Shown here: positions 18,594-38,604 of the stretch, piece after piece | Position numbering within the stretch: the stretch's first letter is position 1 | Layout: each line of letters begins with the position of its first letter | DNA from: Candidatus Bathyarchaeia archaeon | GTDB taxonomy: Archaea; Thermoproteota; Bathyarchaeia; Bathyarchaeales; Bathycorpusculaceae | Assembly (NCBI GenBank): GCA_038883715.1 | Contig: JAVZLS010000010.1 | Location: 1-50,492, forward strand | DNA: 50,492 nucleotides | Direction: 5' to 3' | Notes under the pieces: generated by a model | Database searches by the model: none | What the model saw: only the letters and a program-made list of their open reading frames with translations | Told to the model about the DNA's origin: nothing | Made by a program: the position numbers and the translations under genes

Positions 18594-18746
18594 CCTTTTC
18601 CCATTCTGAAAATTTTGCCATTAGGCCAACGGGTTGGGCCGTGTTTGGGCCAATAGATTTGCCCTTGTGTGGTACAATTCGGCTTTTCATTTTCTTCCGC
18701 GTATTCTTCTGCTGCTGAAAAGCGCGTTAAAGGGGCTGGTGTCTGG

Positions 18747-19949
18747 TTGCCTTGGGAAGTAACCGCCAACTACATTCGCAGTGGCCATCGCAATCCTGAC
18801 GAGTTTGAGCCTGAAAGCCTTCGCACTGTTGTGCTTTCTGATGTTGAGGGGATTAAAGCCATTGTTGGTAAGCCTAAGGGTGGCAAAGGCTCCACAGAAG
18901 TTGTTAGTTTTCTTTTTGATGTTTCTAAGGGCTGGACTTTGGAGAAGGCCAAAGAATGGTTTGAGAGGCATTCTAGGCGTAAAGAGCATTTCTTTGCTGT
19001 TTTGCCCTTCAAAGTGCTTGAAAAAATTGTTGATAAGCCGCTGCGTATCCGCGGTATAGCCTTAACTGCTGGCATGAGCCGAAACTTGAATGTTTACTTG
19101 CCAGAAGAGCTTGAAGCCTTTGCCAGTCGGCTTGTTTCCGCGCCTGTTTATGTGGAGCACGTGGCTGCCGCGAACGCTGTTGGAAAAGTGGTGGACGCCC
19201 ACTGGGATGGGCAGAACCTCTGGTATGAGGCTGAAATCTACGATGACGAAGTTGCCGAAAAAATTCGTAAGGGGCTGATCCGCCATGTGAGCATAGGCGC
19301 CGACTACGAGCGTCTGGATTTTGTTGATGGCAAAATCCCCAAAGGCTTGCACAACGCCGAACTAAGCCTTGTGGCTGTTCCAGGCGTTCCGGAGGCGAAC
19401 ATCCAAATCTTGGAGAGGCTTCAGGAGCAGGGCTTCAGTCCAATAGCTTCAGGCGAGTACATTCTCGGATTCTACCAAGACGTGGAGGCTTTTCTGCCAG
19501 AGCATTTCGCCACTGTTTGGCTTGACCGTGAGAATGGCGTTTTAGCCATCATGGGGCGTCCCAGAGCGGAGCCGGACACCAGCCTTGTTCAGAGCATATT
19601 TTTTGCCAAGGAGAAGATGTGGGATGAGCGGAAAATTAGGGACTGGCTTAGCTTGCATCCAGCCTACATGGCGCCTGTTCCAACGGCTAAAACTTTGAAG
19701 GAGAGTGAGGCTGGTGGTGACAGCGGCGGTAAAGCTGGCTCTGGGGCTGAGGGCTTGTTTGTTAAAAGCGCCAAGCCAATGATTCCCATCGAGGATGTTG
19801 CGAGGATGATAAGGAATGTTTTGCCAAGCCCGATGGTGGAGCGTAGCTGGGGACTTGGTCCCCAAAGAATGTGCCAAGAGCTCCGCGGCGTGCTCTATAA
19901 ACTAAGCAAGCTTGAAGGAGCTGTGAAACAGAATGTTTGTGGGCGTTGA
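18747..19949 (+). CDS. Prohead maturation protease (HK97-type) with flanking repeated domains
   Basis: IRGIAL..GMSRNLNVY, VYVEH (His), AVGKV, HVSIGA (Ser), ELSLVAVPGVPEANI; likely TTG start at 18747. Confidence 0.85.
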   Translation: MPWEVTANYIRSGHRNPDEFEPESLRTVVLSDVEGIKAIVGKPKGGKGSTEVVSFLFDVSKGWTLEKAKEWFERHSRRKEHFFAVLPFKVLEKIVDKPLRIRGIALTAGMSRNLNVYLPEELEAFASRLVSAPVYVEHVAAANAVGKVVDAHWDGQNLWYEAEIYDDEVAEKIRKGLIRHVSIGADYERLDFVDGKIPKGLHNAELSLVAVPGVPEANIQILERLQEQGFSPIASGEYILGFYQDVEAFLPEHFATVWLDRENGVLAIMGRPRAEPDTSLVQSIFFAKEKMWDERKIRDWLSLHPAYMAPVPTAKTLKESEAGGDSGGKAGSGAEGLFVKSAKPMIPIEDVARMIRNVLPSPMVERSWGLGPQRMCQELRGVLYKLSKLEGAVKQNVCGR

Positions 19950-21987: not shown

Positions 21988-23205
21988 ATGGGCGGCGTTT
22001 TAAGAAGGCTCATTGAAGCTTTCACTTTGAAGAAGCATAGTGGCTACGCTTCCGTAGAGCCTCAAATGGTCTATGAGACGCCGAGCATTCCGTTGGCTGA
22101 TGTTATGAGGCTTTATGAGCGGGACCCAGCATGCAAGGCAAGCGTAGATCTTTTGGCGGCTTCAGCCGTTGGAATGGGCTTTTACACAACGGTAAACGAG
22201 AACTATGCAAGGGCTGGGGAAGCCAAACGCCTCATAGACCAATTTAACGAAGAGGCTAATTTAGACATGCTCTTATGCGATATGGCAAGAGTTCTAATCG
22301 CCTGTGGAAACGATTTCTGGCTCAAAATAACACCTGAAAGGCTCACAAGCCTCCAGCGGTTGCCAGTGGACGCCGTAGAAAAAATCGAGTACAGCCTAAT
22401 CCAAGATGGCGGACTGAAAATCCCATACAAGGTTGAGGGCTACAAGCTCCGCTTGGCTTATGGCGGCGAAACCCTAAATCCAGAGGCGGTTATCCACTGG
22501 CGAATAAACTGTTTAGGCTCTTCCGGTTTTGGAACAGGTGTTTTACAGGTTCTATTGCATACGCTTGCCTTCTTTTCTGACCGGCGACCAGCCTACGCCT
22601 GGATGAAAGCAAAAATTGAACGCATAATGCCAAAAATCTTTGAGAAGTATGCCGGACCAGACGTTTTGGCTCTTCTGGAGAGGGCTGACGCCGGCACTAT
22701 CCAAAAGTTTGAAAAAGCCATTAAGAGCCGCCCAGAAGAGGGTGTCTGGCTATTCTATAGCGGGAGAGGCGACATAAAACCGCTCACAATAGACCCCAGA
22801 GCCAGATTTGAATATTACATCGACTACATTGTTAACCAGTTCTATCTTGGCTGTGAAACGCCACTGCCGAGGCTTTTCAGCACTCCGGGCTTCACAGAAG
22901 CCAGCGCCAAAGCCGCATTGGAGCTGCAGGATATGCTCATAAAACCCATTCAACGCTACATTAAGCGGCAAGTGGAGCACGCCATTTTCAAGCCCGTTCT
23001 TTTTCAGGCTGGACTGGACCCTGTTGAGGCTGGGGTTCGCCTAAACTGGGGTTCTCCTAAGACGCCCCAGATAAGCGTTGCAGACATGTTGAAAGCCGCC
23101 GAATTGGGGCTTATACGCCCAGAAGAGTTTCGCAAGAACGCCTTAAAGTGGGGTTGGGAGTTGTGGGAGCGCTCCGAAACCACTCCAGAAAGGCGGGAAG
23201 CCTAA
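21988..23205 (+). CDS. Portal protein
   Basis: 405 aa; LYERDP..KASVDLLA, LIACGNDF, VIHWRIN..GFGTG, IKPIQRYIKRQVE: portal-like pattern. Confidence 0.8.
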   Translation: MGGVLRRLIEAFTLKKHSGYASVEPQMVYETPSIPLADVMRLYERDPACKASVDLLAASAVGMGFYTTVNENYARAGEAKRLIDQFNEEANLDMLLCDMARVLIACGNDFWLKITPERLTSLQRLPVDAVEKIEYSLIQDGGLKIPYKVEGYKLRLAYGGETLNPEAVIHWRINCLGSSGFGTGVLQVLLHTLAFFSDRRPAYAWMKAKIERIMPKIFEKYAGPDVLALLERADAGTIQKFEKAIKSRPEEGVWLFYSGRGDIKPLTIDPRARFEYYIDYIVNQFYLGCETPLPRLFSTPGFTEASAKAALELQDMLIKPIQRYIKRQVEHAIFKPVLFQAGLDPVEAGVRLNWGSPKTPQISVADMLKAAELGLIRPEEFRKNALKWGWELWERSETTPERREA

Positions 23206-23316
23206 TGCTGTTTTTGCGGTTTTCTCCTTTCTCCCCTCGAAAATGGATGCGCTTCCCCATTTCTGGAGTGGCGGAACAGCCAATAAAAAGTATTAAGCAT
23301 TAGAGGAGGTGGATGG

Positions 23317-23556
23317 ATGAACCTTCTGCATGTTGGTTTAGGTGTGGGCGCCGCTTTAACCTATGCCTTCCTAGGATTTGCAGCCCAAGATAAGCCCTTC
23401 AACTGGCGAAAGTTCCTACGGACAGTGGCTATTGCGGCTTTCTCCTCGCTTGGCTTGGACTTGGCTGGAATGACCTTTGACGTTTACACAGCCCTTGTTG
23501 GACCAACAGCCATCACAGTTTGGCTTCAGAAGCTTGTGGACACTGCAAAACACTGA
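23317..23556 (+). CDS. Small membrane protein, holin-like
   Basis: 79 aa with 2-3 hydrophobic helices, FNWRKFLRT loop, GGAGGTG RBS. Confidence 0.55.
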   Translation: MNLLHVGLGVGAALTYAFLGFAAQDKPFNWRKFLRTVAIAAFSSLGLDLAGMTFDVYTALVGPTAITVWLQKLVDTAKH

Positions 23557-23578
23557 GAACATGGAGGAGTGCAGCGAA

Positions 23579-23812
23579 ATGAGCCAGGAAGTGCCCTATT
23601 GGCGTTATGAAGAGGCTTTCAAGGCTGTTCACAGCGCCTTATGCGGGCTTATGGCGCCGCCGAGCGGTAAAAGGGTTACTAGGTTGGCGTTTACTTGGAA
23701 CGCTGATGGCACTGTTAACACCATTAAGGCGTTTATGGGCGACGAGCTTCTTTTCTCCCTCACCTTTTCTTGGAATGATGATGGAACCCTGCGGGAGGTG
23801 GCTCGAACATAG
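23579..23812 (+). CDS. Hypothetical virion-associated protein with internal repeat
   Basis: LAFTWNADGTV and LTFSWNDDGTL repeat; GGAGG RBS. Confidence 0.65.
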   Translation: MSQEVPYWRYEEAFKAVHSALCGLMAPPSGKRVTRLAFTWNADGTVNTIKAFMGDELLFSLTFSWNDDGTLREVART

Positions 23813-23860
23813 GCGGCTTGCTGTCCGCTTATGCGAGAAACCCGGAACGGAGGATTGAAA

Positions 23861-24352
23861 ATGGAGAAAATTGAAGTAGGCGCATTAGTGAGGTATCGTG
23901 TGATTAAAAGGCGTGTCTGCGAGCAGAAACCCTACAGCATAGAAGAAAGCAGCCACAACTGCTTCCTCATCGAAGGCATGAATGAAATGTGGAACCTGAT
24001 ACTGGGCATTGGCGGAACAGCCTACAACAGCGCAAACGCGTACATCGGCGTGGGCGACAGCACAACCGCTGAAAGCGAAAACCAAACAGGGCTAACAGGC
24101 ACAAACAAGTATTATAAGGGCATGGCAAGCGGCTATCCGAAGGGTCCAAGCGAGGCTGGCGACAAAAAAGCCATTTTCAGAGCCATTTTCGCCAGCGGCG
24201 AGGCAGAATTCGCATGGAACGAGGTTACTGTGGCGAATGGCAACAGCGACGCCGCCAAAAACATGCTTCGCATAGTAGCGAGCAAGGGAACAAAGCCCTC
24301 CGGCGAAGAGTGGACAGCTGAAGTGGAAGTCCAATTCCAAAACCCGGCATAG
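23861..24352 (+). CDS. Putative minor virion structural (fibre-base) protein
   Basis: YIGVGDSTTAE...QTGL and AIFASGEAEFAWNE pattern resembling phage minor tail proteins. Confidence 0.6.
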   Translation: MEKIEVGALVRYRVIKRRVCEQKPYSIEESSHNCFLIEGMNEMWNLILGIGGTAYNSANAYIGVGDSTTAESENQTGLTGTNKYYKGMASGYPKGPSEAGDKKAIFRAIFASGEAEFAWNEVTVANGNSDAAKNMLRIVASKGTKPSGEEWTAEVEVQFQNPA

Positions 24353-24369
24353 TCTAAAGGTGAATAATT

Positions 24370-24729
24370 ATGGCAACTGTTTCAAAGGATGTGCTTTTGG
24401 ATAAGTTAAAGGCTGTCAAAAAAGGCGTAGACACCATCTTATTGAAGCAGTTAGAGGGTGGCTGTTACGTGGGCATAACAGCCAAAGACTTTGCAGAGAT
24501 GCTTAACTGGATTATGAAGGGCAAAGTTGTCGAGGAAACCGTTGTGGACTATGCGGAGGACGGCTCGCCTATCATAGAGCGGAGAGAACGAGACCCAACA
24601 CCAGAAGAGGTTAAACAGCGTTGGCGTGAAAGCGGTTACGTCGAAATTTTCGAGGATTGGCTTGCCAAAGGCAAAATTAACTCTAAAGATTTGAAAGTGT
24701 TGTTTGGAAGTGAAGCGCCATGGTTGTAG
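24370..24729 (+). CDS. Hypothetical protein
   Basis: 119 aa ORF in operon with AGGTGA RBS. Confidence 0.65.
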   Translation: MATVSKDVLLDKLKAVKKGVDTILLKQLEGGCYVGITAKDFAEMLNWIMKGKVVEETVVDYAEDGSPIIERRERDPTPEEVKQRWRESGYVEIFEDWLAKGKINSKDLKVLFGSEAPWL

Positions 24730-25007
24730 GTGATGTTAAAAGCGACCTGCAAAGCATCGCGGCAGGCAGTTTTTTGGCTATTCAGCCGCCTCAGGGCGAA
24801 GAATGGGTTGTCCACAACGTTTACCATGAAAGCGACGTTGAATTGCACTTTTATGACGGCACTAACAGCCTTGCCTTTGACACAGATGCAGGTGCAGGTG
24901 TCTACGCGAAATATGCTTTTCATTGCACTAACAGCCGATACATTCGAGTGAAAAACACGAACACTGCTGCTAAGCTTATAGGCTTTGACGGTGTGCAGAC
25001 CAAATGA
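24720..25007 (+). CDS. Small beta-rich putative virion protein
   Basis: 95 aa, alternating beta-strand pattern, overlaps both neighbours. Confidence 0.6.
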   Translation: MVVGDVKSDLQSIAAGSFLAIQPPQGEEWVVHNVYHESDVELHFYDGTNSLAFDTDAGAGVYAKYAFHCTNSRYIRVKNTNTAAKLIGFDGVQTK

Positions 25008-25750
25008 CAAGACTGACGCCTCAACTAACAAATCTTAAAATTTTTGATATAACATATCCGAAACAGGAAACGCTTTTAGACACGCCTGAAATTCTGCCAA
25101 CAAGTGAGCCTTCCACTCCGCAAATAGGATACACCGTTCAAGAAAGCGATTTGCCTGCCTTAAATTTTTACAAGAAGATTTGGGTTGCATTCGTTTTCGG
25201 CGCTGGGAAGTTTCCAACAGCAGGAACACTATATTGGCGGATGAAAAAGAACGGCTCCAGCGTCGCTACTAGTTCAGCTTCAGTTTCAACAAATTATTAT
25301 TACACTGTGAACGCGTTTTTCTATGACGTTAAAGTTGGCGACGTTTTAGAGCTTGCTTTATGGTCAAGCGTTTCAGACAGCAATTGGGATTATAAAGCCC
25401 TCAGTGTGCTTGTTACCCGCATAATACCGATAAAAATTCGTTTGCTTAAGCCGTGCACAGTTGTTCTTACCACACGCCCCGTGCTATCGTTAGGCAATCC
25501 TAGCGTTTACAGCACTGACAGCTTAAGGATACACCACGACGACTTTACGCTCGAGTCAATTACTGCTTCAAAAACATATAATTCATTGTATTTTAGTGAT
25601 ACTGCGATATATGGTCTATGCAGAATATATAATGGTGACATGAACTATCCTAACAGTGCCGTTGTGAGGACGTCTGCCAGTTACCGCCCCTATTATCATC
25701 GTAATTATGTTCCTTCGCAAATAAAACTGCGAGGCGTTCGAATTGACTGA
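25004..25750 (+). CDS. Putative beta-sandwich adhesin/receptor-binding protein
   Basis: S/T/Y-rich 248 aa, ATGA overlap, visibly AT-richer than its neighbours. Confidence 0.55.
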   Translation: MTRLTPQLTNLKIFDITYPKQETLLDTPEILPTSEPSTPQIGYTVQESDLPALNFYKKIWVAFVFGAGKFPTAGTLYWRMKKNGSSVATSSASVSTNYYYTVNAFFYDVKVGDVLELALWSSVSDSNWDYKALSVLVTRIIPIKIRLLKPCTVVLTTRPVLSLGNPSVYSTDSLRIHHDDFTLESITASKTYNSLYFSDTAIYGLCRIYNGDMNYPNSAVVRTSASYRPYYHRNYVPSQIKLRGVRID

Positions 25751-26285
25751 AATCAGCGAATACGGCGACATAATCATAAACGCTTATATGGACGAGTGGG
25801 GACGCAGGCAAATCGACAGCCTACTGGAAGATGGCGTCAAAATAGTGACTTTGGTCAGCGCGCCAATAATTAAAACATGGTTTAACTCGCTGGTGACGGT
25901 TCACAATTTTAGGCGTCCCCAGCGCGTCCTAAAGCTGGCACAGATTTTACGGACATTGCACATATGGACCGTTACAGTTCCAACGGCAATAATTAGGCAG
26001 TGGTTTGCAAGCCTCAGCTTGTTCCATGTCCTTCGTAGACCGGAAAGAAAAATGCTTTACATGCAAGCCTTAAAATCCACTCATGTCTTCGGCAAACCTT
26101 TAAGGGTTATAAGGATTCGAGTCTTTCTCAACCTAATTCACGCTTATAAGCGACCCCACCGTTTGATAAGAATTCTTCAACAATCTGGGCTGGTCCACAC
26201 ATATTATTTGTCTAAGCCGGGCGTGAAGAAAACGAAGCTTTTCCTAGTTATAGGCGAATTGGCTTTTCAACTGTCCGGAGATTAG
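25743..26285 (+). CDS. Basic protein with 19-aa His-anchored repeats
   Basis: His at residues 54, 73, 95, 114, 133, 152 with HxxRRPxR-like units. Confidence 0.65.
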   Translation: MTEISEYGDIIINAYMDEWGRRQIDSLLEDGVKIVTLVSAPIIKTWFNSLVTVHNFRRPQRVLKLAQILRTLHIWTVTVPTAIIRQWFASLSLFHVLRRPERKMLYMQALKSTHVFGKPLRVIRIRVFLNLIHAYKRPHRLIRILQQSGLVHTYYLSKPGVKKTKLFLVIGELAFQLSGD

Positions 26286-27295
26286 GTTGAAGCTTTAGCC
26301 ACCATTTTAAACTGATACCTTATGTTTTCGTCCATTATGTAAAATGTGTGCTCCTGACCCTCAGCCACATGCACTATCGGTTTCGCAAGAATCTCAGCAA
26401 TTTTTGCCAGTTCGCTTAAATCCTTAACCGTTATGGTTGTCTGCGGCAAAGTTTTCGGCGCCTCCAAAGCCTCAACAACTAAGTCCTTGAAGGGCGCTAT
26501 AATCTTCTCTAATGGCTTTTCAATTTTCGGCTTAGTTCTAATATAGAAGAGCGTTGAGAAGGCCAGTCCGGCAAAGGCTGTTGTAACTAAGATGTATGAG
26601 GCATAGCGTTGGCTGACAACTTCCTGATGGGTTATTGTTTCAGTCTCTGTCAGTGCGCCAGCCCTTGAATGATGCAGTGGCTCAATTACTGTTATTTCGC
26701 CTTTGTCGGTTCGTTGGAAGGAAACCGTTAGGGTCGGCGTAAACACTTGATATATCTTGCCAGCGGTGGTGTTGGCTCTAACCATAAAGGTTGGCCTAGC
26801 CTCCAAAGTGTATGTTGTAGTGCTAGCCCCTGTTTCCTTGTCGATCTCCTCCTTCAACTGGTCCAACAGCGTCTTATTCACTGTTGGAAGTGATATTTGG
26901 ATCTGCGTCTGACTGGTGGTGAACGGCCCTATTCTTTCTATTTCATAGGTCCATGCTGAAGCTTTGAGGCTTCGTGTCACCGTGTAGGTTATTTGAACAT
27001 CTGCCAGTGGCTGGTCTGTGTTGAATTCATATGTTAGGGTTATGTTTACGTGGCGAACAAGCCTCGTATAAAGCGTTTCATATTCCGGTCCTATAACACT
27101 TTCATTGTCATAAACCTTGTTTGGTGTTTTAACCAGAGCCAAATAGGTGTAGTCCGCCGTGCTTTCATATGTGCAAAGCGTTTCTGTTCTAGTCTCCTCC
27201 ATCGGAGTTTGGTGCACCACGTAAAATGTTATAAGCGCAATAACTGTTAGAACTATGAATATTGCGAGAAGAACTTTTACCTTTTGGATTTTCAA
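26282..27295 (-). CDS. DUF5305-like membrane-anchored surface protein
   Basis: N-terminal TM/signal, Thr-rich extracellular region, second TM, C-terminal VKDLSELAKIAEILAKPIVH motif. Confidence 0.65.
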   Translation of the reverse strand: MKIQKVKVLLAIFIVLTVIALITFYVVHQTPMEETRTETLCTYESTADYTYLALVKTPNKVYDNESVIGPEYETLYTRLVRHVNITLTYEFNTDQPLADVQITYTVTRSLKASAWTYEIERIGPFTTSQTQIQISLPTVNKTLLDQLKEEIDKETGASTTTYTLEARPTFMVRANTTAGKIYQVFTPTLTVSFQRTDKGEITVIEPLHHSRAGALTETETITHQEVVSQRYASYILVTTAFAGLAFSTLFYIRTKPKIEKPLEKIIAPFKDLVVEALEAPKTLPQTTITVKDLSELAKIAEILAKPIVHVAEGQEHTFYIMDENIRYQFKMVAKAST

Positions 27296-27535
27296 GTTTC
27301 AACCCTCTATTGCCTTATACTTTTTAGCATGTGTCTTCAAAAATGTTTTGTTCCCGCCACGGAAGGCTGGAATTCACCCGTTATTATCATCAGGGCATAA
27401 GCCTAAAACAAAAACATTTAAAAGAAATAACTAAAAATTATGGTTTAAATAAAAAATTGTTCAGAAAAAGACTTTAAAAACGTGAAAATTGCTTAAATTT
27501 CGCCTTTCCAAGATTCTGTTGAGGTTGATGCTCCC

Positions 27536-27889
27536 TTGGTAAGCGTCTCTGTGGCGGATGTTCGGGATGTTCTAAACCTAGACAGCGAGGACATTTCAGA
27601 CGACAAAATTGTTAAGATGATTAAGAGGGCTGAGGTGGCTTTAGAGCTTGAGCTTGGGAAAGAAATTGACTATGTAGACTGCACAGAACCCGAAAAGGAG
27701 GCTATAACGCTTCTCGCAGCCATATACGCCATCTGCTATTTGACGGGCGGCTCGGCTGTTGGCTTAAACTTCACCATAGGCGACAAAAGCATAAGCGTGC
27801 TGAGTAATGCTCCGCCGCTGAATGTTTTGCAGGGCGAGCTAGAACGGATTCTAGCCGTTTTGAAGCAGCCCTATGTTGGGAGGGCTTAA
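27536..27889 (+). CDS. Head-tail adaptor (gp6/gp15-like)
   Basis: 117 aa helical, SVADVRDVL...DDKIVKMIKRAE, first gene of the neck/tail module. Confidence 0.65.
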   Translation: MVSVSVADVRDVLNLDSEDISDDKIVKMIKRAEVALELELGKEIDYVDCTEPEKEAITLLAAIYAICYLTGGSAVGLNFTIGDKSISVLSNAPPLNVLQGELERILAVLKQPYVGRA

Positions 27890-27894
27890 GCCTT

Positions 27895-29280
27895 TTGGGA
27901 AAAGTTCCAGAAGCCTACTACGCTTTTGTCACGGATTATGCGCCTTACGTTTATGTGGTTCCGCCTAGCACTCCAGACCAGGAGTGGGGAAGAGCAGCCT
28001 TTGCCGCCGCCTTCGCCATAGACTTCCTTTACGAGGCTTATGGGGCGGAACAGTTCAGCGACTACGAAACAGCCATATACAACAAAATTGTCAGCCTTGC
28101 GGATTGGATTTTAACCCAGCAGTGCACAGAACAGCAGAAAAGGGCTTACGGCGGCTTCAAATCGGCTGAAAACAGCACTTATTATTATGCAGTAGACGCC
28201 TGTCGTGTTATTCCAGCGCTTCTTAAAGCCTACGAGTTAACTGGCAACAACAACTATTTGAATGCCGCAAAGCTCGCCGCCACCTTCCTCAAAACCATGC
28301 AGGAGCAGCAGCCTTATGGCGGTTTTGCAAGAGCCGTTGACATTAATGGAAATTGGCTTTTACAGTTGGATGTGGAGTGCCTTTACGGGCTTTTGGGCTT
28401 AAAAATGCTGGCTGAAAAGTACGATGTGGCAAACGCCAGCCTATACCAAAACATGATGCGAAAGGCTGCTGATTTTCTCCGAGAAGGCTTTGATGGTTTA
28501 TGGCTTTACTACGACCCTTCTGACGGCAAGTGGCATCGTGTTGGTTTGGCGGAAAACGAGGTTTACGACGACTGTTTCGCCTATGCGCTTTTAGGCTTGT
28601 ACGTTTATGAGGGCTGGAGCCCCTCATGCCAAAAAGTTTACAACTTCCTCAACTCGATAGGGACTTCCGCCAGGTATCCGGCCTATAATCCGGCTGTTTG
28701 TTGGGCTGGCTACATAGACGTTGTTTCGCGTTTCCCAGCATGCGACTATTATGATGGTGTTACCGCTGGCATCTTGTGGCAAGTCCGCAAACACCATGAC
28801 AAGCCAAGCCTCGCCTACAGCATGAAAATCATAGAAAAATACGCTGAAAATTTCATGTTTTGGGGCGTTAAGCATGCGGACTACAGCCCAGTGGAAGAAA
28901 AGTGGGCTATGGCTACGGTTTGCTGGCTCGCAAGGTTTTTCCTCAACTACGAAGAACCCTTAACACGTTTTATGCAAGTGCTTAGGGCTCATGGCAGACG
29001 GGTTACGCTTTATCCGCTTGTGGCTTCCGGCGAATCCGCTAATTATGGCGAAGGCGTGGAAATCCAAGCCTTTATCGCTCCAGCGCGGGTTGATGAGGTG
29101 TTTTTGGAGCCGGGCTACGTCATAAGCGACTACATTACGGTTTATACTTTCGTGCCGTTGCGTGTTCGGGATAAAATCCTGGTTGGCAGCATTGACTACG
29201 AGGTTTTAAGCGTTCAAGCCTTCGATTGGAGGGGCGAAACCGCCTATTTTAGGGCTAGTTGCAGGAGGCTAAATGCATGA
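27895..29280 (+). CDS. (alpha/alpha)-barrel domain fused to C-terminal head-closure-like domain
   Basis: ADWILTQQ..YGGF and ATFLKTMQ..YGGF repeats; last ~95 aa VTLY...LRVRDKILVGSIDYEVLSV resemble gp16-type stoppers. Confidence 0.6.
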   Translation: MGKVPEAYYAFVTDYAPYVYVVPPSTPDQEWGRAAFAAAFAIDFLYEAYGAEQFSDYETAIYNKIVSLADWILTQQCTEQQKRAYGGFKSAENSTYYYAVDACRVIPALLKAYELTGNNNYLNAAKLAATFLKTMQEQQPYGGFARAVDINGNWLLQLDVECLYGLLGLKMLAEKYDVANASLYQNMMRKAADFLREGFDGLWLYYDPSDGKWHRVGLAENEVYDDCFAYALLGLYVYEGWSPSCQKVYNFLNSIGTSARYPAYNPAVCWAGYIDVVSRFPACDYYDGVTAGILWQVRKHHDKPSLAYSMKIIEKYAENFMFWGVKHADYSPVEEKWAMATVCWLARFFLNYEEPLTRFMQVLRAHGRRVTLYPLVASGESANYGEGVEIQAFIAPARVDEVFLEPGYVISDYITVYTFVPLRVRDKILVGSIDYEVLSVQAFDWRGETAYFRASCRRLNA

Positions 29281-29717
29281 GCGAAATTGGAAGCCCTGTG
29301 GACGTTGTCATTCAGCTGTTGAGCGAGAACATGCAAGTGGTTAAAGAGGATGGAAGCCTTGCCAAAATTCAGGTTAGCCGCGAATGGCTAAGCCAAGAAG
29401 CTTTACAGCAGATTGATGGGCATGTGACCGTTGGCTTGGCGGAGTGCCTCGACACAAAACTTGAGCTAGGCGGCAAGCTCCGAAGACGCGTGTACGCCAT
29501 CCGCGTTAACGTTTGGAGCCGAGACCCGCTAGTCCGCCAGAAAATGGTTGAGGAGATTATGCGGGTTATCCGCCAAAACCGCATTAACCCGGGCGGCTCC
29601 TTGGCTTATTTAGATGTGGTTAGTTTTCGGGATGTTGACCATGTGGATGTTAAACCAGTCATTTACAGAACCGAGTTCGTCTTGAGGTCATGGGTATTCG
29701 AGAATTTGGGAGTGTGA
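29277..29717 (+). CDS. Putative tail terminator protein
   Basis: Position before the tube gene; IRVNVWSRD motif; ATGA overlap. Confidence 0.6.
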   Translation: MSEIGSPVDVVIQLLSENMQVVKEDGSLAKIQVSREWLSQEALQQIDGHVTVGLAECLDTKLELGGKLRRRVYAIRVNVWSRDPLVRQKMVEEIMRVIRQNRINPGGSLAYLDVVSFRDVDHVDVKPVIYRTEFVLRSWVFENLGV

Positions 29718-31134: not shown

Positions 31135-31484
31135 ACATTGAAATAGACGGCGAAGGGGTTTTGCAAGCCCTTCAACGCCTAGACGGGGCTATGCTGCGAC
31201 AGGTCCAAGAGCGACTTGAGCGTTGGGCTATGGAGGTCCGTGAATATGCCAGAAGCCTCGCTCCGGTTCGAACGGGCTATTTGAGAAGCACCATTTACGC
31301 GACTGTTAAAGATTGGGTTACAGAAATTGGAGCCACAGCTTCTTACGCCATGTTTATGGAGTTTGGCACCCGCCACATGAAAGCCCGCCCATATCTTTAC
31401 CCAGCCATTCAAGAACGTCTTCCAAGACTTGAAGCAGTTATAGTTGAGGCTTTGGAGCACGCTGCCTCGGAGGCTGGATTATGA
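31119..31484 (+). CDS. HK97 gp10-like tail completion protein
   Basis: APVRTGYLRSTI...YAMFMEFGTRHMKARPYLYPA signature. Confidence 0.88.
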   Translation: MAVEVNIEIDGEGVLQALQRLDGAMLRQVQERLERWAMEVREYARSLAPVRTGYLRSTIYATVKDWVTEIGATASYAMFMEFGTRHMKARPYLYPAIQERLPRLEAVIVEALEHAASEAGL

Positions 31485-32023
31485 GTTTCCGTGAAATAGC
31501 CATAACCATCCGCGCCATAAACCGCGCAAGCCACGAGTTTGCCAGAATCCAATCAGACGCCGAAACCTTGAGCGTGCGGATTAAAAGCCTCGGCGCCACA
31601 ATGGCTGGTTTAGGAGCCGCCGGCTCAGCAGTTGTCCATGTCGCCCACTCCTTCGGCTTACTGAACAGCGAGCAAACAAGAGCCTTAGCCAGCCTCACAT
31701 ACCTTGTCACCACCATGGGCGTGTTTATGCGCACCAGTTGGGGTGTAGCCGTAGCCCAGAAGGTTTACGCCGCAGCCTGCTGGATTGCCAACGCTGCCCA
31801 GCAAGCCCTAAACATAAGCTTCGCCACCTTCCTAGCTTTAACGGGTGTTGGAATAGTCGCCATCCTAGGGGCTGCTGCTGCCATATCCTATTTCGCCAGC
31901 CAAATGCGAAACGCCACAGAAAGCGTCCGCGAATACAACGAGGCGGCTAGTGAACTCAGCTTTGCTGGCAGAAGCATTCGTAGGGCTGGTGAAATGGAAC
32001 TTTATAGGCGAGGCGTAGAATAG
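31481..32023 (+). CDS. Very short tape measure protein
   Basis: N-terminal IAITIRAINRAS, Ala/Gly-rich helical and hydrophobic, AAQQALN..F..LTGVG pattern; position after TAC. Confidence 0.7.
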   Translation: MSFREIAITIRAINRASHEFARIQSDAETLSVRIKSLGATMAGLGAAGSAVVHVAHSFGLLNSEQTRALASLTYLVTTMGVFMRTSWGVAVAQKVYAAACWIANAAQQALNISFATFLALTGVGIVAILGAAAAISYFASQMRNATESVREYNEAASELSFAGRSIRRAGEMELYRRGVE

Positions 32024-33641: not shown

Positions 33642-33828
33642 GGATTCTAGGCGGACAGTCGTGGAAGTTCGGGAGGACTTGCATCGGGAGGTTCGGAAGT
33701 TGGCATTGTTGAATGATTTGAGGATTTATCAGCTTGTAAACGCCATAATCGAGGATTACTTGAGGGACGGTGAGCGGGTGAAAGCCCTAATAAAGAGGCT
33801 TAGGCTTCAGTTTCCGCCTCCACCTTGA
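33634..33828 (+). CDS. Small RHH regulator
   Basis: TVVEVREDLHREVRKLALLNDLRIYQLVNAIIEDYL. Confidence 0.65.
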   Translation: MSRDSRRTVVEVREDLHREVRKLALLNDLRIYQLVNAIIEDYLRDGERVKALIKRLRLQFPPPP

Positions 33829-34714
33829 CGGCTTCCAGTAGGCTTTTTATTTCGGCTTTTTCCACCTCGCCCAGGGGTAGGGTTGGCATGCGCGGGTAGC
33901 CTCCAGGCAATCCCAGCATCCGCATTGCTTCTTTTATGGCTGAGAGCTGGTTGAAGCGTCTGACTAGAACTTCGTTTATGTGGGTTATTGTCCTTTGAAG
34001 TTTTGCCGCTTTTCCGATATTGCCTTGCTTGTAGGCTTTGTATAGGTTTGCACAAAGCTTAGGGTAGGTGTTGGCTACGGCTATTACGGCGCCTTTTCCG
34101 CCTAGCATTAGTGTTGGCAGCACAACGTCGGCTGTTCCAGCCAAAACAGCCATTTTTTCGCCTACTAGGCGTATTGTCTCCGTTATTGTGGCTATGTTTC
34201 CGCCGCTGTCCTTCACGCCCACCACGTTCGAATATTCTTTGGCGAGTTCTGCTATTACGGCTGGTTCTAGGGCGTAGCCTGTAAACTTTGGAACGCTGTA
34301 TAGGATTATTGGCAGGTCTACGGCCTCTAAAACAGCTTTGTAGTGGGCTGTTAGTTCTCGGTTTGAAAGCCTAAAATAGTAGGGTGTAACCACTACGGCG
34401 GCGTCAACGCCCAAGTCCTTGGCGTCTCTTGTTAGGCGTATGGTTTCCCATGTGCTGGGCGCCCCAGTGCCAGCAACAACCGTCACGCTGTTTTTAGCCT
34501 CTTCTAGGACTGTGGCGACTATCTTTTGGCGTTCCTCCCTCGCCAGGTAGGGGGCTTCGCCATTACTGCCACAAGGCATAAGGCCATCTATGTCATTTTC
34601 AATCCAGAACTGCACGCATGTGCGTAGTGCTTCAAAGTCTATTTCGCCTTTTTCCGTGAAAGGCGTAATGCATGGGACAAATATGCCTTCAAACTTTCTG
34701 GGTTTCATTTTCAT
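33800..34714 (-). CDS. dapA: Dihydrodipicolinate synthase / N-acetylneuraminate lyase family (DapA-like)
   Basis: ITPF, GSNGE, VTPYY, ILYSVP and VGVKDS (Schiff-base Lys) motifs; exact substrate uncertain. Confidence 0.85.
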   Translation of the reverse strand: MKMKPRKFEGIFVPCITPFTEKGEIDFEALRTCVQFWIENDIDGLMPCGSNGEAPYLAREERQKIVATVLEEAKNSVTVVAGTGAPSTWETIRLTRDAKDLGVDAAVVVTPYYFRLSNRELTAHYKAVLEAVDLPIILYSVPKFTGYALEPAVIAELAKEYSNVVGVKDSGGNIATITETIRLVGEKMAVLAGTADVVLPTLMLGGKGAVIAVANTYPKLCANLYKAYKQGNIGKAAKLQRTITHINEVLVRRFNQLSAIKEAMRMLGLPGGYPRMPTLPLGEVEKAEIKSLLEAVKVEAETEA

Positions 34715-34785
34715 CCAGCCGGTCTATGTTTGTGAAAGCTATTTATTGTTTCATGCTTTATTAAGGGTTGAGGAGTTGAGGCTTC

Positions 34786-34980
34786 TTGAAAAGTCTGGAG
34801 GGGCTTCCTTCGGAAGTGAAGTTTTTGATGGCTGTGGATATGACTGATTTCGCCCTGCAAGTTTGTGCCGCCGGCATTAAGGCTGAGAATCCGGACATCG
34901 GCGAGGCTGAGCTTTTGGAGAAGCTTCGGGAAAGGCTTGAATGGTGCAGGCGTGAACGCCAGCGGCGGCGTGGTGTATAG
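34786..34980 (+). CDS. Small protein, probable partner of the downstream nucleotidyltransferase
   Basis: 64 aa, AGIKAENPD..E.EL pattern, 2 bp upstream of the NTase. Confidence 0.55.
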   Translation: MKSLEGLPSEVKFLMAVDMTDFALQVCAAGIKAENPDIGEAELLEKLRERLEWCRRERQRRRGV

Positions 34981-34982
34981 GT

Positions 34983-35528
34983 TTGACTTTTTTCCATGAT
35001 TTTGTTGGGCGTGTTGTCAACTCTTTGGAGAAAGTTGGGATACATTATGCTTTTACTGGTGCTTTGGCTGCCAGCTTTTACGGAGTTCCCAGAACAACAG
35101 TGGACGTTGACGTAATTGTTTTTCTGCAGGGCGAATCGGATAAGGTTAAGCTTGTTTCGGCTCTTAGGGATGCGGGATTAGACGCCGACACGCAAAAGAT
35201 TGAAAAAGCCTTAAGGTCCGGATATAGGATAGCCTCCTTTAAGGATGGGCGGACGCCTTACACCCTCGACGTAATCCTTTCAGAAAGGAAATTTAAGAGA
35301 AGGTCTGGGAGGTTGGACGAGTTTAAGGCACACTTCCAAACGCCTGAAGATCTTGTTTTGGCTAAGCTTCGCATGATTAGGGCAACCATGCCAAGGGAAA
35401 GAGCCCAAAAAGACATAGAAGACATAAAAGCCATACTAAAATTCACAAAAGTGGACATAGAAGCGGTTAGAAAACAAGCCAAAAAAGAAGACACTCTCCA
35501 AATTCTTGAAGACTTAGTGATTAAGTGA
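34983..35528 (+). CDS. Nucleotidyltransferase (DUF6036/AbiEii-like), putative TA component
   Basis: TGALAASFYGVPRTTVDVD, PEDLVLAKL and KDIEDI motifs. Confidence 0.8.
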   Translation: MTFFHDFVGRVVNSLEKVGIHYAFTGALAASFYGVPRTTVDVDVIVFLQGESDKVKLVSALRDAGLDADTQKIEKALRSGYRIASFKDGRTPYTLDVILSERKFKRRSGRLDEFKAHFQTPEDLVLAKLRMIRATMPRERAQKDIEDIKAILKFTKVDIEAVRKQAKKEDTLQILEDLVIK

Positions 35529-35849
35529 AGTGCAAAGTAATCCTCTGTTTTGTTGGGCATAAAAAGAAGGTTTACGAAGACCTGACAAAAATGTTTTAGG
35601 CTTTATTTCGGTTATGACCTTTTAACACATGGTTCGTTGGTTAAAAATTTGTATTTTGTATTTTTGTTTTTTAACGAAATATAATGTTTTATCCTCTTTC
35701 AACTTATTATGCTTTAAAATCGTCGAAAATTCAGAAATCGCCAATTTTTAACAATATTATCTATTCACAATTTACATATTTTTTCTTTGTGATTTTATTC
35801 GAGAAACGTTTATAAGCTACAATACACTGTTTGATTCTGCTGTGGGAAA

Positions 35850-36257
35850 GTGATGGAAGAACTGCGCAGAAAATTCATAGTTGAAGAAAAGCTTGATGAG
35901 AAAATGATAACCGAATACATAGAACGCTCCCTTAGATTTGGTAAAGTATCAATTGATGGAGGCGTTATTATCGAAAAAGAAGGAATGGCAACAAAAGATC
36001 AGATTGGTTTAGCTGTAGTCATGAGACTTTTGGCAAATCGCTTGGAAAAGGGAATTTCTGCAGAGGTGAACACCAAGGAACTTTCTCAGAACTTGGGTAT
36101 TCCTGAAGATCAAGTAGCAGCAAGGCTTGCGGATTTAAGGGATGAGGGGGTTGTTATAAGGGTTGATAAGGGTGTTTACAGGGCAAACCCAACCCGAGTC
36201 GGAAGGTTTCTTGATTATTTAGAAGACAAATACTTGAAGGAGAGTGAGAAGAAATGA
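35850..36257 (+). CDS. Winged-helix protein
   Basis: TKELSQNLGIPEDQVAARLADLRDEGVVIRVDKGVY. Confidence 0.75.
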   Translation: MMEELRRKFIVEEKLDEKMITEYIERSLRFGKVSIDGGVIIEKEGMATKDQIGLAVVMRLLANRLEKGISAEVNTKELSQNLGIPEDQVAARLADLRDEGVVIRVDKGVYRANPTRVGRFLDYLEDKYLKESEKK

Positions 36258-36700
36258 CTGAAACAAGCTACAGGTTCAAGTATAAAAAGGGTGATTTTGA
36301 GATTGAAATTCAAGGCGACAAGGAATGGGTTGAGAAGAAATTCAAAGAAGTTATGGGAGAAAAAATCATTGAACCTGCGACTTTAATTGCAAAAGTAAAA
36401 GCGCTCCCTGATTCCTTGGTTGAATTCCTTAAAATTAAGGGTGACCCAAAAGAGCATATCGACAGAATAATTGTTTTTTCGTACTGGCTTTTTTACAAAG
36501 AGAATCTTAAATCTTACAATGTTGATGATATTGAGCGATGTTACGACGAGACTAGAATAGCAAAGCCTACCAACATTCATGCCTTTATGAACGATCTGCA
36601 AGCGAAAGGATACTTAAAACCCGCAGGAGAGAAGGACGGCAAAAAAGCGTGGGTAGTTACTAGAACTGGAGAAGAGTATGTCGAAAAAATGGGAGGATGA
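36254..36700 (+). CDS. Hypothetical protein with C-terminal winged helix
   Basis: EIEIQGDKEWV N-domain; KGYL...WVVTRTGEEYVE wing; ATGA overlap. Confidence 0.7.
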   Translation: MTETSYRFKYKKGDFEIEIQGDKEWVEKKFKEVMGEKIIEPATLIAKVKALPDSLVEFLKIKGDPKEHIDRIIVFSYWLFYKENLKSYNVDDIERCYDETRIAKPTNIHAFMNDLQAKGYLKPAGEKDGKKAWVVTRTGEEYVEKMGG

Positions 36701-36704
36701 AAAT

Positions 36705-37490
36705 ATGGCATTAACGCTTGAAGATTTTGCTAAAAAATTAGTTGATTTAGGGATTGATAAAGAGGTAATTAATCGCCTAATTGAATATTACAAAGAAGTC
36801 AAGAAGGCACACCTTTCTAATAAATGCAAAGATGTTATTCGATATGCAGGACAATTTTCTGAGGTTATTCTTGCGCTGATTGAAAATAAAGTTTCTGAAA
36901 AGAGTGTTAACGTGGATAAGGTTGAATTTGAAAAACTATACAAGAAAATTTTGAACTATCCAAAATCAAATGCTAAGGATGAAATATTAACTCTGGCAAT
37001 GCCAAGAGTTGCCCGGTCTGTTTACACTTTACGTAATAAAAAAGATGTTGTTCATGTTAAAACAGTGGACCCTGATTTTATTGATTCTGTGTACTGTGTA
37101 ACAGCTTGCGACTGGATGTTATCTGAACTTGCCTTTTTATTGTTGAAAGCTGATGAAAGAGAAGTTTACGGACTAATAAACTCTGTTCTTAAGAAAAAGG
37201 TTCCATTAATAGAAGAATTCGAAGATGGAACCATCGTTGTTCTTAAGGAAGGTCTATCATGGGCTGACGAAATTTTACTGGCTTTATATCACTACTATCC
37301 ACAAAGATTGAGAAGACAAGAATTAGAAAAAATCTTAAAGACATCATCAAACATCATATATACTTATCTCCAGCGTCTCGAAAACAAGAGACTAATTCAT
37401 AGGACAGACGAAGGCAGTAAATTGACACAGCTTGGAATAAAATACGTTGAAGAAAATCTACTAATAAAACAAGAAAACTCTGAGGTATAA
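36705..37490 (+). CDS. Putative HEPN-like domain + C-terminal winged helix
   Basis: YTLRNKKDVVH (Rx6H), C-terminal LTQLGIKYVE; GGAGG RBS before ATG 36705. Confidence 0.65.
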   Translation: MALTLEDFAKKLVDLGIDKEVINRLIEYYKEVKKAHLSNKCKDVIRYAGQFSEVILALIENKVSEKSVNVDKVEFEKLYKKILNYPKSNAKDEILTLAMPRVARSVYTLRNKKDVVHVKTVDPDFIDSVYCVTACDWMLSELAFLLLKADEREVYGLINSVLKKKVPLIEEFEDGTIVVLKEGLSWADEILLALYHYYPQRLRRQELEKILKTSSNIIYTYLQRLENKRLIHRTDEGSKLTQLGIKYVEENLLIKQENSEV

Positions 37491-37603
37491 CAGCGCATTA
37501 TCTATGATAAACTATAGCTCTTCTGAGCTGGTGAATTTGTAAATTTCTGAATTTTGGGCTTCTTTATATTCGGTTTTTTCTCGTTTTTGTTTGATGATGG
37601 TGT

Positions 37604-37996
37604 ATGAGGGAGGTTGTTAGGCGGGTTAGGGAGTTAAGTCTTGGTGATTTGGTTCGTGTTGAGTGGTTTGACGCTAGTATAGGCAAAAGCCTCAGCGGTG
37701 GTTTGAACGGCATAGACGTTCCTGTTGTCAGCTGGGGCATATTTCTAGGCGTTTTGGGTTCTAAGAACCGGCATATTATTTTGGCTCAGAACTGTTTTCG
37801 TTATGCTGATGGCTTCTACGACATTGATTATACGGCTGTGCCACTGGCTTGGACAAGCAACACCAATGTAATCGCCAAAGCCCATGTCCAACCCGAAGAA
37901 GCCAAACAGCTCCTAAACAGCTTCTTGGTGGGCGGAAAACGCGCCTCAATAAAGGGCAAGAAGTACCACCAACAGAGGGTTGAAAACCATGCCTGA
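37604..37996 (+). CDS. Hypothetical virus-type protein
   Basis: GDLVRVEWFDAS...SWGIF small beta-barrel pattern; first gene of the terminase operon. Confidence 0.7.
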   Translation: MREVVRRVRELSLGDLVRVEWFDASIGKSLSGGLNGIDVPVVSWGIFLGVLGSKNRHIILAQNCFRYADGFYDIDYTAVPLAWTSNTNVIAKAHVQPEEAKQLLNSFLVGGKRASIKGKKYHQQRVENHA

Positions 37997-38219
37997 CTGG
38001 ATTAAAAAGGCTTTAACAAGAAGAACCCGCAAAGGCGAAATCCCACCAGACCAAAGGCTTCTCATAGGCGTAAAATTCGCCATAGCCATGACAATATGCC
38101 TATCCGCCCTAGAAGTCGCCCATCTGGCTTTTCTTGGCAGATGGAACAGCGAAATCTTCGCCGCCATAACAGGCTTGACGGGCACTGTAAGCGGCATCCT
38201 CATAGCACAAAAAACCTAG
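37989..38219 (+). CDS. Small two-TM membrane protein (holin-like candidate)
   Basis: Basic N-terminus followed by two hydrophobic helices. Confidence 0.6.
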   Translation: MPDWIKKALTRRTRKGEIPPDQRLLIGVKFAIAMTICLSALEVAHLAFLGRWNSEIFAAITGLTGTVSGILIAQKT

Positions 38220-38235
38220 AGGGGGTATCCAATTT

Positions 38236-38604
38236 ATGCCTAAAAAAGCACGTAAATTGATGATAACCCGCCGAATAGCCGAACTCCGCCAAGAATTCCA
38301 GATAAACACGCAGCAACTGCGAACAAAAACCATCCAGAACCTCCAAGAGCTTTTCAACATTGCCATGTCCCTAGCGAAAGGCGAAGTAAAAACCCAAACA
38401 GCCAATGGAAAAACCGAGAAAATAACCCTAAAACAAAGGCAAATGTGGGCACGCATAGCCACATACATCGCCCAAACTATAAACAGCATCTCCAACACCT
38501 TCGACGAGCGCAAAATTGACGAAGACTTGGCTAAACTGGAGGAACTAATAAATGAAGCAGCGGCAAAAACAAAAACTCCGCCAACTGGAACAGGCGCTTG
38601 CTGA
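38236..38604 (+). CDS. Putative terminase small subunit
   Basis: 122 aa, helical and basic, directly upstream of and overlapping TerL; positional call only. Confidence 0.5.
   Translation: MPKKARKLMITRRIAELRQEFQINTQQLRTKTIQNLQELFNIAMSLAKGEVKTQTANGKTEKITLKQRQMWARIATYIAQTINSISNTFDERKIDEDLAKLEELINEAAAKTKTPPTGTGAC

Follow-up and report, generated by a model that had tools for sequence, protein, structure and literature searches.

A head-closure protein fused to a six-hairpin (alpha/alpha)6 barrel in tailed viruses of Bathyarchaeia: architecture, spread and a proposed role at the virion neck

Why should the slot normally filled by a head-closure protein of about 110 amino acids (aa) hold a protein of 461 aa? 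This question is raised by a gene on contig JAVZLS010000010.1 (assembly GCA_038883715.1) of a Candidatus Bathyarchaeia archaeon from the family Bathycorpusculaceae. The whole stretch of DNA analysed, positions 1 to 50,492 of this contig (50,492 nucleotides, nt), is referred to below as the window. A first-pass annotation, made from the letters of the sequence, had described the gene product as an enzyme-like helical toroid joined to a head-closure (stopper) domain. The analysis presented here bears out this two-domain description and makes it probable that the gene encodes the head-closure protein of a siphovirus-like Bathyarchaeia virus, which would carry a collar of six glycan-binding or glycan-cleaving barrels. 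The parts of this interpretation differ in strength. The two-domain architecture is practically certain, the display of the barrel on the neck is highly likely by analogy with phage necks, and glycan binding or catalysis by the barrel, as judged from its residues, has slightly better than even chances.

One uninterrupted gene and its two domains

The open reading frame (ORF) starts with TTG, about 10 nt downstream of a GGGAGGG run, and the stop codon of the preceding gene (27887–27889) lies five bases ahead of this start. At the other end, the stop codon and the ATG of the following gene share an ATGA sequence (29277–29280), and GGAGG is present upstream of that ATG. Together, the stop/start overlap and the GGAGG look like the usual signature of co-translated virion genes. 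For locus counts, 80 of the 140 IMG/VR contigs that carry a relative of this gene were kept. An uninterrupted frame of 459–473 aa is present in 72 of these 80 loci, the other eight are cut by the contig end, and no internal stop occurs. The same intact frame is found in nine genome loci. The 461 aa fusion is a genuine two-domain gene, neither a product of chance nor a gene-call artefact.

A full-length AlphaFold2 (AF2) model, built on 45 sequences, reaches a predicted local distance difference test (pLDDT) score of 95.8 and a predicted template modelling (pTM) score of 0.93. It contains 12 helices in residues 6–351, followed by one helix and beta strands in residues 358–458. The linker between the barrel and the stopper is only about six residues long, and the two domains pack against each other. 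The helical repeats with Q..YGGF motifs, which had been pointed out in the N-terminal part, correspond to these 12 helices, and the motifs LTQQCTEQQKRAYGGF (residues 73–88) and MQEQQPYGGF (residues 135–144) are both kept in 27 aligned homologues. A second, internal start yielding a free stopper from the fused gene was considered and rejected, as the domain junction has no conserved start codon in 94 loci (position 356 in 8 of them, position 360 in 2). Among the listed runs that hold the sequence there is no RNA run, and the contigs of four runs gave a fragmented, strain-mixed cover with no robust joint. The window's own genome has no second copy of the gene.

The C-terminal domain is recognised mainly by its fold. 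Modelled separately, residues 356–461 reach a pLDDT of 93.1. Structural comparison with VIA-align against about 48,000 representatives of the PDB placed cyanophage Pam3 neck protein (8hdr_A) closest, with a Z score of 12.6 and a root-mean-square deviation (rmsd) of 3.3 A over 97 residues. It was followed by Pa193 (Z 11.3), the XM1 head completion protein (10.8), the phage 812 stopper (10.2), the stopper of the Rhodobacter capsulatus gene transfer agent, RcGTA (8.9), and the nuclear magnetic resonance structure of SPP1 gp16 (6.1). Nearly all of the 19 chains with Z>=8 are phage neck proteins, and the 17 best all belong to neck proteins of phages or prophages and to homologues of these. The fold is also contained in the phiKZ neck protein 9xps_B (437 aa, named by its entry title; Z 6.5). 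Foldseek led to the same group of proteins, namely SPP1 gp16/connector, T1 stopper, Bxb1, RcGTA and lambda neck proteins. The proposal that the last 95 aa or so form a stopper of the SPP1 gp16 type is upheld by these comparisons, with SPP1 gp16 (7z4w, 2kca) itself among the matches.

By sequence, the C-terminal domain is only weakly recognisable: phrog_939 matches it with E 3.4e-4, its profile reaches E 0.29 (8hdr_A) and 0.73 (9c39_E) against the PDB, and the Pfam scan of the window protein gave no PF05521 (Phage_HCP) match. Its best-conserved stretch is E405-P-G407-Y408...D412-Y413, in a loop region between strands. The E405-D412-Y413 loop lies at a place in the chain comparable to that of the SPP1 gating loop, and the equivalence of the two is putative. 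Two features that characterise a stopper are present: a beta-barrel core of the size (about 100–130 residues) and topology known from stoppers, and a gene located after the adaptor gene and before the putative terminator and tube genes.

The N-terminal domain has the twelve helices arranged as six hairpins in a toroid that define the six-hairpin superfamily; they make up residues 1–355. With VIA-align, residues 1–353 match the glycoside hydrolase (GH) family 8-like protein CPF_2247 (3ren_B) with Z 28.3 and rmsd 3.4 A over 303 residues. They are followed by cellobiose 2-epimerase (5zig_A; Z 28.0, model residues up to 361) and by YihS, glucose 2-epimerase, GH76 and GH88 (Z 25–27). The best 50 matches are all of the (alpha/alpha)6 type (Z 28.3–21.1), with squalene cyclases near the bottom, and Foldseek agrees with 259 matches at E<=1e-3, E being about 1e-7. 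The toroid that the first-pass annotation had proposed is accordingly an (alpha/alpha)6 barrel of glycoside-hydrolase/epimerase type, with terpene cyclases only lower in the list.

Sequence profiles give a similar picture at the level of the superfamily. The Pfam family C5-epim_C (PF06662) matches residues 95–233 of the window protein with 28.9 bits against a cut-off of 23.3, and it matches 23 of the 45 family members scanned (E<=0.01). The family profile searched against the PDB found GH76 (E 1.4e-5), cellobiose 2-epimerase (0.013), GlcA C5-epimerase (0.018) and LanC-like proteins (about 0.01–0.02). The GH76 match runs through a 34-residue hairpin motif that fits three repeats of the barrel. 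In addition, the invariant Y224-D225-D226 of the barrel lies, by hidden Markov model register, in a different hairpin from the catalytic Asp-Asp pair of GH76 (title of 6shm). The 2-epimerases and isomerases of the AGE type, with Z 28.0–26.5, share just 6–12% identity with the barrel. Catalysis involves histidines in these AGE-type enzymes, and tyrosines and a glutamate in GlcA C5-epimerase. Since no single family stands out, the barrel is assigned to the six-hairpin superfamily without placement in any of its families. NCBIfam gave no match for the fused protein, its relatives or its neighbours, and the ESM Atlas leads to uncharacterised bacterial clusters, all scoring below 0.9.

A single-sequence phmmer search of the PDB gave a lipase (E 0.42) as its sole match. 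Another identity was considered for the barrel and rejected. Complement C3 chains are among the Foldseek matches (E about 1e-6) and the window copy has C77-T-E-Q, and a thioester (TED-like, complement C3) reading was dismissed as the motif C-x-[ED]-Q is kept in only 4 of 27 homologues.

Spread of the fusion and an unfused counterpart

The first-pass annotation had asked whether homologues are also fused, and the fusion proved to be widespread rather than confined to the source assembly. A word-indexed search found at least 935 protein clusters homologous to the fused protein at E<=1e-3. Among the 120 clusters listed, lengths are 447–473 aa and identities 63–100%, and the source names given are all Bathyarchaeia, Bathyarchaeota or Bathycorpusculaceae. 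A match was present in 12 of 201 sampled Bathyarchaeia genomes, including 7 of 27 in the window's own family; several genomes have more than one copy, and one has up to 4–5 matches. Such a patchy, multi-copy distribution points to a provirus-like pattern rather than a vertical one. When the protein was compared by tblastn with 50,697 GenBank phage records, none of them matched at E<=1e-3. Among the best 50 BFVD matches, two cover the barrel; the others are neck proteins of about 100–280 aa, mostly 100–155, that match the C-terminal domain. A widespread and uncultivated group of tailed viruses of Bathyarchaeia has the fusion as a conserved trait.

Some fused variants carry insertions in barrel loops (P0123 and L101–L106), of about 140 aa after residue 76 and of about 70 aa between residues 22 and 28. 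P0123 is 614 aa long and represents a cluster of which 15 members were read, about 10 of them with 614–615 aa.

An unfused counterpart is found in a related provirus (locus L018, genome G077), in which a stopper of about 112 aa lies between the adaptor and the p152 homologue (p152 being the gene that follows the fusion in the window). This provirus has the same adaptor, p152, tube, chaperone-like, gp10-like and tape-measure-like genes. Because the unfused stopper is located there, the slot is that of the head-closure protein, with the barrel as an extra. The view that the 461 aa protein takes the place of a head-closure protein of about 110 aa agrees both with this locus and with its own neighbours in the window, an adaptor gene before it and neck and tube genes after it.

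The 139 matches of an exhaustive search of representatives fall into four kinds: fused proteins of full length, proteins with the barrel alone, fragments, and proteins of about 100–113 aa that correspond to the C-terminal domain end to end. Among the stand-alone homologues scanned, phrog_939 was found in 9 of 12 (best E 1.3e-8) and phrog_161, 'head closure Hc1', in 4 of 12; P0240 additionally matches Pfam Phage_HCP (PF05521) with 23.6 bits, the cut-off being 25. A word-based search for shorter homologues of residues 352–461 yielded only four, which are fragment-like. In a tree of the C-terminal domain, five clear stand-alone forms, including that of L018, are split from all 23 fused forms by a 97/94 branch. 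Four putative stand-alone proteins (P0189, P0222, P0175 and P0241) fall among the fused forms, and 7 of 7 nearest metagenome relatives of P0189 are fused. A single clade of all fused forms was not rejected by the approximately unbiased test (p-AU 0.119).

The proposed collar and its alternatives

The added barrel is better conserved than the stopper to which it is fused. Mean pairwise identity is 74.3% in the barrel and 61.0% in the stopper, with the barrel higher in 305 of 351 pairs, and invariant columns number 100 of 355 and 13 of 106, respectively. Of 36 pairs, 29 have a lower rate of nonsynonymous substitution (dN) in the barrel than in the stopper, and the ratio of dN to the synonymous rate (dS) is about 0.07–0.11 where dS is unsaturated. 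On these sequence measures, the barrel is shown to be under purifying selection. Conserved residues include D101, E161, W213, H214, R215, D225/D226, E239, W270, Y285-Y286-D287 and W323. The invariant acidic residues D101, E161, D225/D226 and D287 lie at the N-termini of alternate helices, and the aromatic-rich loops YGGF (twice), WHR, CWAGY and FWG are also invariant. In the model, this acidic and aromatic pattern would be the one expected of the substrate face of six-hairpin enzymes.

The nearest sequence relatives of the barrel are uncharacterised secreted proteins. Some barrel-only relatives belong to very large surface proteins that also contain DUF2341 and LamG domains. A hydrophobic, signal-like N-terminus is present in all 11 barrel-only homologues inspected, with P0143 as a possible exception, and these homologues retain D101, W213, R215, D226, E239, Y285, Y286, D287 and W323. 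A membrane-anchored barrel-only protein of 415 aa (L019:9319-10566, genome G103) is 55–59% identical to the viral barrel. Its gene is located amid surface-protein genes (InlB B-repeat, CarboxypepD_reg, LamG), and no gene of viral type occurs within 9 kb of it. A quick tree with distant secreted homologues as its root places this protein, along with two that resemble it, within the viral barrel clade, which suggests an exchange of the barrel between virus and host that may have gone in either direction.

Two side observations concern these relatives. The ORF just upstream of the L019 gene (7983-9119) also ends in a Q..GGF-type motif. P0128 (645 aa) is a barrel protein with no signal-like start and with about 230 aa of C-terminal GSVG(I/L)LG-type repeats; judging by its sequence, it may represent another virion or fibre context of the barrel.

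A mechanism can be proposed for such a protein. After DNA packaging, the C-terminal beta-barrel of about 106 aa would bind under the adaptor ring, presumably as a hexamer by analogy with solved necks, and this hexamer would close the portal channel and offer a docking surface for the tail. The N-terminal barrel of 355 aa would be held on the outside of the neck because the linker has only about six residues, and six copies would form a collar of six-hairpin barrels. The barrel would most likely bind, and would probably cleave or modify, a glycan of the host envelope or matrix. Such engagement could help the virus to adsorb reversibly, to get through a polysaccharide layer or to escape from debris. 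The glycan role is proposed because the barrel has extracellular kin and a conserved polar face, and because a related virus lives without it. The hexameric display, the outward orientation, the binding or conversion of a glycan and the biological role are what we infer from these data.

A ring of six fused copies agrees with the solved necks of long-tailed phages, which, in the parts of PMC12886913 and PMC9701221 that deal with them, contain 12 portal, 12 adaptor, 6 stopper and 6 terminator subunits. SPP1 gp16 has its extreme N-terminus inserted in an adaptor crease. A complex prediction with two adaptor copies and the full-length protein had a score of 0.00 and speaks neither for nor against the proposed arrangement.

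A stronger form of this proposal, which is possible though rather doubtful, is that the barrel is an active hydrolase, lyase or epimerase of an uncharacterised six-hairpin family, presented six-fold in the gate and moved repeatedly between viruses and host surface proteins. If true, it would be the first case of a virion whose stopper doubles as a depolymerase. A bolder extension would couple glycan engagement at the neck mechanically to the opening of the gate.

Several points weigh against the proposed glycan-engaging collar. The barrel fits no characterised enzyme family, its structural neighbours are tied at Z 25–28 across several families, the C5-epim_C match spans only profile positions 24–168 of 188, and the profile matches to GH76 and epimerases in the PDB rest on the generic hairpin motif. 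The placement of the conserved residues in a pocket is deduced from where they lie in the model, namely at the N-termini of alternate helices. Display on the neck is predicted from sequences and models, and we know of no isolate of this virus group. By rough geometry, six barrels of about 50 A on short linkers would have to pack tightly round the ring. Moreover, as the N-terminus of SPP1 gp16 enters the adaptor, a protein with a 40 kDa N-terminal fusion would need another contact with it. The window copy itself may be a decaying provirus, given the extra genes between its portal and adaptor genes and its displaced terminase gene.

Among the alternatives, the one that survives best, although it is unlikely, is a purely structural collar, in which the barrel has no glycan role and reinforces or shields the head–tail joint, may contact the capsid or the adaptor and could be useful at hot-spring temperatures. 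The short linker and the confident packing between the domains (pTM 0.93) do suggest a rigid unit, the barrel is without a confirmed catalytic motif of a named family, and the runs holding the sequence are labelled as hot-spring metagenomes. Phage 812's decoration proteins have likewise been proposed, in a part of PMC12886913, to reinforce neck interfaces. A structural role accounts less well for the polar and aromatic residues, which are also kept in barrel-only proteins, secreted or membrane-anchored, where there is no virion to reinforce; residues common to both settings argue for a ligand site that is independent of context. The barrel is also more conserved than the structural stopper, and the related provirus without a barrel indicates that this domain is not needed for the integrity of the neck.

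It is improbable that the barrel instead acts inside the cell or only transiently, by modifying precursor glycans, by chaperoning the assembly of neck and tail, or by being cleaved off at maturation, which would leave the mature neck with an ordinary stopper. The presence of the N-terminal domain in particles is itself deduced, proteolytic maturation is common in the heads of tailed viruses, and a 426 aa ORF of the window (18669-19949) has a weak match to a head maturation protease (phrog_976, E 0.0037). Set against this are the covalent, stoichiometric fusion kept in 72 of 72 complete loci, the junction without a conserved internal start (94 loci), a six-residue linker that is packed between the domains rather than long and exposed, and barrel relatives that are extracellular proteins.

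Still less credible is a domesticated or defective phage-like element of the gene transfer agent or PBSX type, in which the fused protein serves a host function. The structural module is indeed flanked by cellular genes, with no integrase seen and with the terminase gene separated from it by DHDPS-family and AbiE-like genes; there is no tape-measure candidate other than one of 180 aa, and the fused protein is highly conserved. The patchy, multi-copy distribution among the sampled genomes speaks for viruses instead, as do the 140 viral contigs of IMG/VR, the long ones of which carry a compact capsid-to-terminase module, and the orthologous contigs catalogued as Bathyarchaeia Caudoviricetes in the portions of PMC10848311 that list them. 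In any case, domestication would touch the copy in the window and not the family. Finally, an assembly error that joined two adjacent genes, for which only the unusual size for the slot could be cited, is ruled out by the intact frame in 72 of 80 independent viral contigs (the other eight end-cut) and in nine genome loci, and AF2 packs both domains confidently.

Genome context, significance and comparison with known systems

The genes around the structural module of the window are cellular, including a PAS/GAF histidine kinase, NrdD and PmbA/TldD, and because they flank the region, the element is regarded as a provirus. Its structural genes, several of which are given in Table 1, are arranged in the order cement/decoration, HK97-fold capsid, portal, small unknown genes, adaptor and 461 aa fusion. 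They are followed by the gene of 146–152 aa, the tube gene, a gene of 154 aa, the gp10-like gene, a membrane-like gene of 180 aa and a YqbQ-like tail-tip gene of 538 aa.

Table 1. Positions in the window of the fused neck gene, its domains and the viral genes around it
Feature	Position	Strand	Basis
HK97-fold major capsid protein, 317 aa	20490..21443	+	Pfam Phage_capsid 29.7 bits; phrog_267
Portal protein, 405 aa	21988..23205	+	Pfam Phage_portal 23.3 bits, below cut-off
Adaptor, gp6/YqbG-like head-tail connector, 117 aa	27536..27889	+	Pfam Phage_connect_1 15.1 bits, below cut-off
Fused neck gene, 461 aa, (alpha/alpha)6 barrel and head-closure/stopper domain	27895..29280	+	ORF list, AF2, homologues
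N-terminal domain, residues 1-355, six-hairpin (alpha/alpha)6 barrel	27895..28959	+	VIA-align, Foldseek, Pfam, conservation
C-terminal domain, residues 356-461, head-closure/stopper beta-barrel	28960..29277	+	AF2, VIA-align, Foldseek, phrog_939, stand-alone homologues
Neck gene p152, candidate tail terminator, 146 aa from ATG 29277, 152 aa ORF from 29259	29277..29717	+	Synteny
Tail tube protein, 289 aa	29724..30593	+	Pfam Phage_tube_2 56.8 bits; phrog_290
HK97 gp10-like tail completion/Neck1 protein, 121 aa	31119..31484	+	Pfam HK97-gp10_like 31.1 bits; phrog_5 E 6e-21
Terminase large subunit, 454 aa	38552..39916	+	Pfam Terminase_6N 59 bits, Terminase_6C 39.3 bits

The same context recurs in relatives. 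The adaptor gene upstream and p152 downstream of the fusion are present together in 68 of the 80 IMG/VR loci, with 10 loci cut by contig ends and two that differ, and p152 is the downstream neighbour in 78 of 80. Orthologues of the adaptor carry a YqbG-like annotation in the supplement of PMC10848311. The order adaptor, fusion, p152 and tube is found in 5 of 8 genome loci, and the portal is syntenic in related proviruses (44–70% identical). The canonical module in IMG/VR consists of protease/scaffold-like, cement, capsid, portal, adaptor, fusion and p152 genes, followed by tube, p154, gp10-like, tmp180, YqbQ-like and terminase genes.

In the window, about 4.3 kb of extra genes lie between the portal and the adaptor (23205-27536), including p79, a phrog_23653 protein, several unknowns and, on the minus strand, a DUF5305 membrane protein (26282-27295). 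Most related contigs have the portal gene or a small p79 gene directly ahead of the adaptor. The terminase gene lies 5 kb beyond the structural module, behind a minus-strand DHDPS-family gene, an AbiEii/AbiEi-like pair and unknown ORFs (33800-38552), and in relatives terL directly follows the YqbQ-like gene. The stretch of 38–42 kb has an unusual composition, with an AT skew of 0.35–0.45 and a GC skew of about -0.25. The hydrophobic protein of 180 aa (31481-32023; weak phrog_4211) is the only tape-measure candidate, and no sheath gene was seen in the window. If it does serve as the tape measure, a very short tail would be expected. One gene of the PmbA/TldD type is broken into two overlapping ORFs (42619-43200 and 43148-43996), which between them contain the three domains found intact in its neighbouring paralogue; the arrangement suggests a frameshift or a sequencing error.

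The p152 protein has no match in Pfam, PHROG or the PDB. It is short in the window, and in L013, L016, L017, L102, L103 and L105-L107 two conserved halves of its gene lie about 500 nt apart, a gap which implies an inserted domain of roughly 170 aa. Going by these sequences, neck proteins in this group of viruses seem to acquire extra domains readily.

To our knowledge, viruses of Bathyarchaeia have yet to be cultivated, and little is known of the envelope of their hosts, archaea that are abundant in sediments and hot springs. A conserved glycan-active domain carried by the virion, if confirmed, would report through its ligand what the virus contacts on the cell surface, and a barrel derived from a thermophile is open to expression and screening without growing the host. 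For enzyme discovery, the barrel stands for a six-hairpin family that is still unassigned and is also present among the secreted proteins of many uncultured lineages. Its genes are also easily mislabelled as metabolic 'epimerases' when the top hit alone is reported, a matter of importance for annotation.

Genes that look like members of the same family in the same context, judging by their listing, have already appeared in a study of Bathyarchaeia viruses (Duan et al. 2024, ISME Commun, PMC10848311; preprint PMC10541130). Its supplement lists genes of about 470 aa in Baizomonadales Caudoviricetes contigs (VC_253_0), beside YqbG-like and tail-tube genes. The top HHpred hit given there is 3WKG, cellobiose 2-epimerase, for DTQN01000003_13 and DTQN01000004_30, and 7KJK, the head completion protein of phage XM1, for DSXG01000094_7. 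One top hit is given per gene, and as the words 'cellobiose', 'barrel' and 'glycan' are absent from the main text, the two-domain architecture appears not to be described in that part of the article. Xu et al. (PMC11705971) treat Bathyarchaeia proviruses and auxiliary metabolic genes, and the passages concerned do not mention the fused gene. No description of a stopper–barrel fusion was found in open-access full text, the supplementary figures of PMC10848311 being covered by term only.

Among characterised proteins, the stoppers SPP1 gp16, Pam3, XM1, RcGTA and lambda gpFII resemble residues 356–461 in fold (Z 12.6 to 6.1) and in their position after the adaptor, and the stand-alone homologues of this domain have the same size of about 100–113 aa as head-closure proteins. 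Unlike these known stoppers, the window protein adds an N-terminal (alpha/alpha)6 barrel of 355 aa, and its stopper domain falls below the curated Pfam threshold. For the barrel itself, six-hairpin enzymes such as AGE epimerases, CPF_2247, GH76 alpha-1,6-mannanases, GH88/GH105 unsaturated glucuronyl hydrolases and the C-terminal domain of GlcA C5-epimerase have the same fold as residues 1–353 (Z 28–23), with an identity of 6–14%.

Other elaborations of the neck are known from phages. The neck passage structure (NPS) is a separate and dispensable protein attached to the neck, whose modules are beta-rich carbohydrate-binding modules, and it differs in this from a fusion of the stopper with an (alpha/alpha)6 barrel. 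In lactococcal 936 and P335 phages, according to the relevant portion of PMC6669499, the NPS resembles the proposed barrels in presenting glycan-recognising modules at the head–tail junction, where they act as accessory devices for adhesion.

The closest parallel is the stopper gp97 of Staphylococcus phage 812 (8q01/8qgr; core Z 10.2), which likewise has an extra domain outside the neck. As described in the sections of PMC12886913 on the neck, it forms a hexameric ring with a beta-sandwich domain on the outside, and its termini are in contact with outer decoration proteins. The first-pass annotation had called the architecture of the window protein unfamiliar; this does not hold for an externally decorated stopper as such, which is already known, and it stands for the type and size of the added domain, as an enzyme-sized six-hairpin domain appears to be new in this position. 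The window protein would extend the range of neck elaborations, which includes decoration proteins, whiskers, the NPS and the 812 beta-sandwich, to an enzyme-sized fusion with the gating subunit. In phage 812, the added part is a small beta-sandwich with no enzymatic role proposed in those sections, whereas in the Bathyarchaeia protein it is an N-terminal six-hairpin barrel of 40 kDa.

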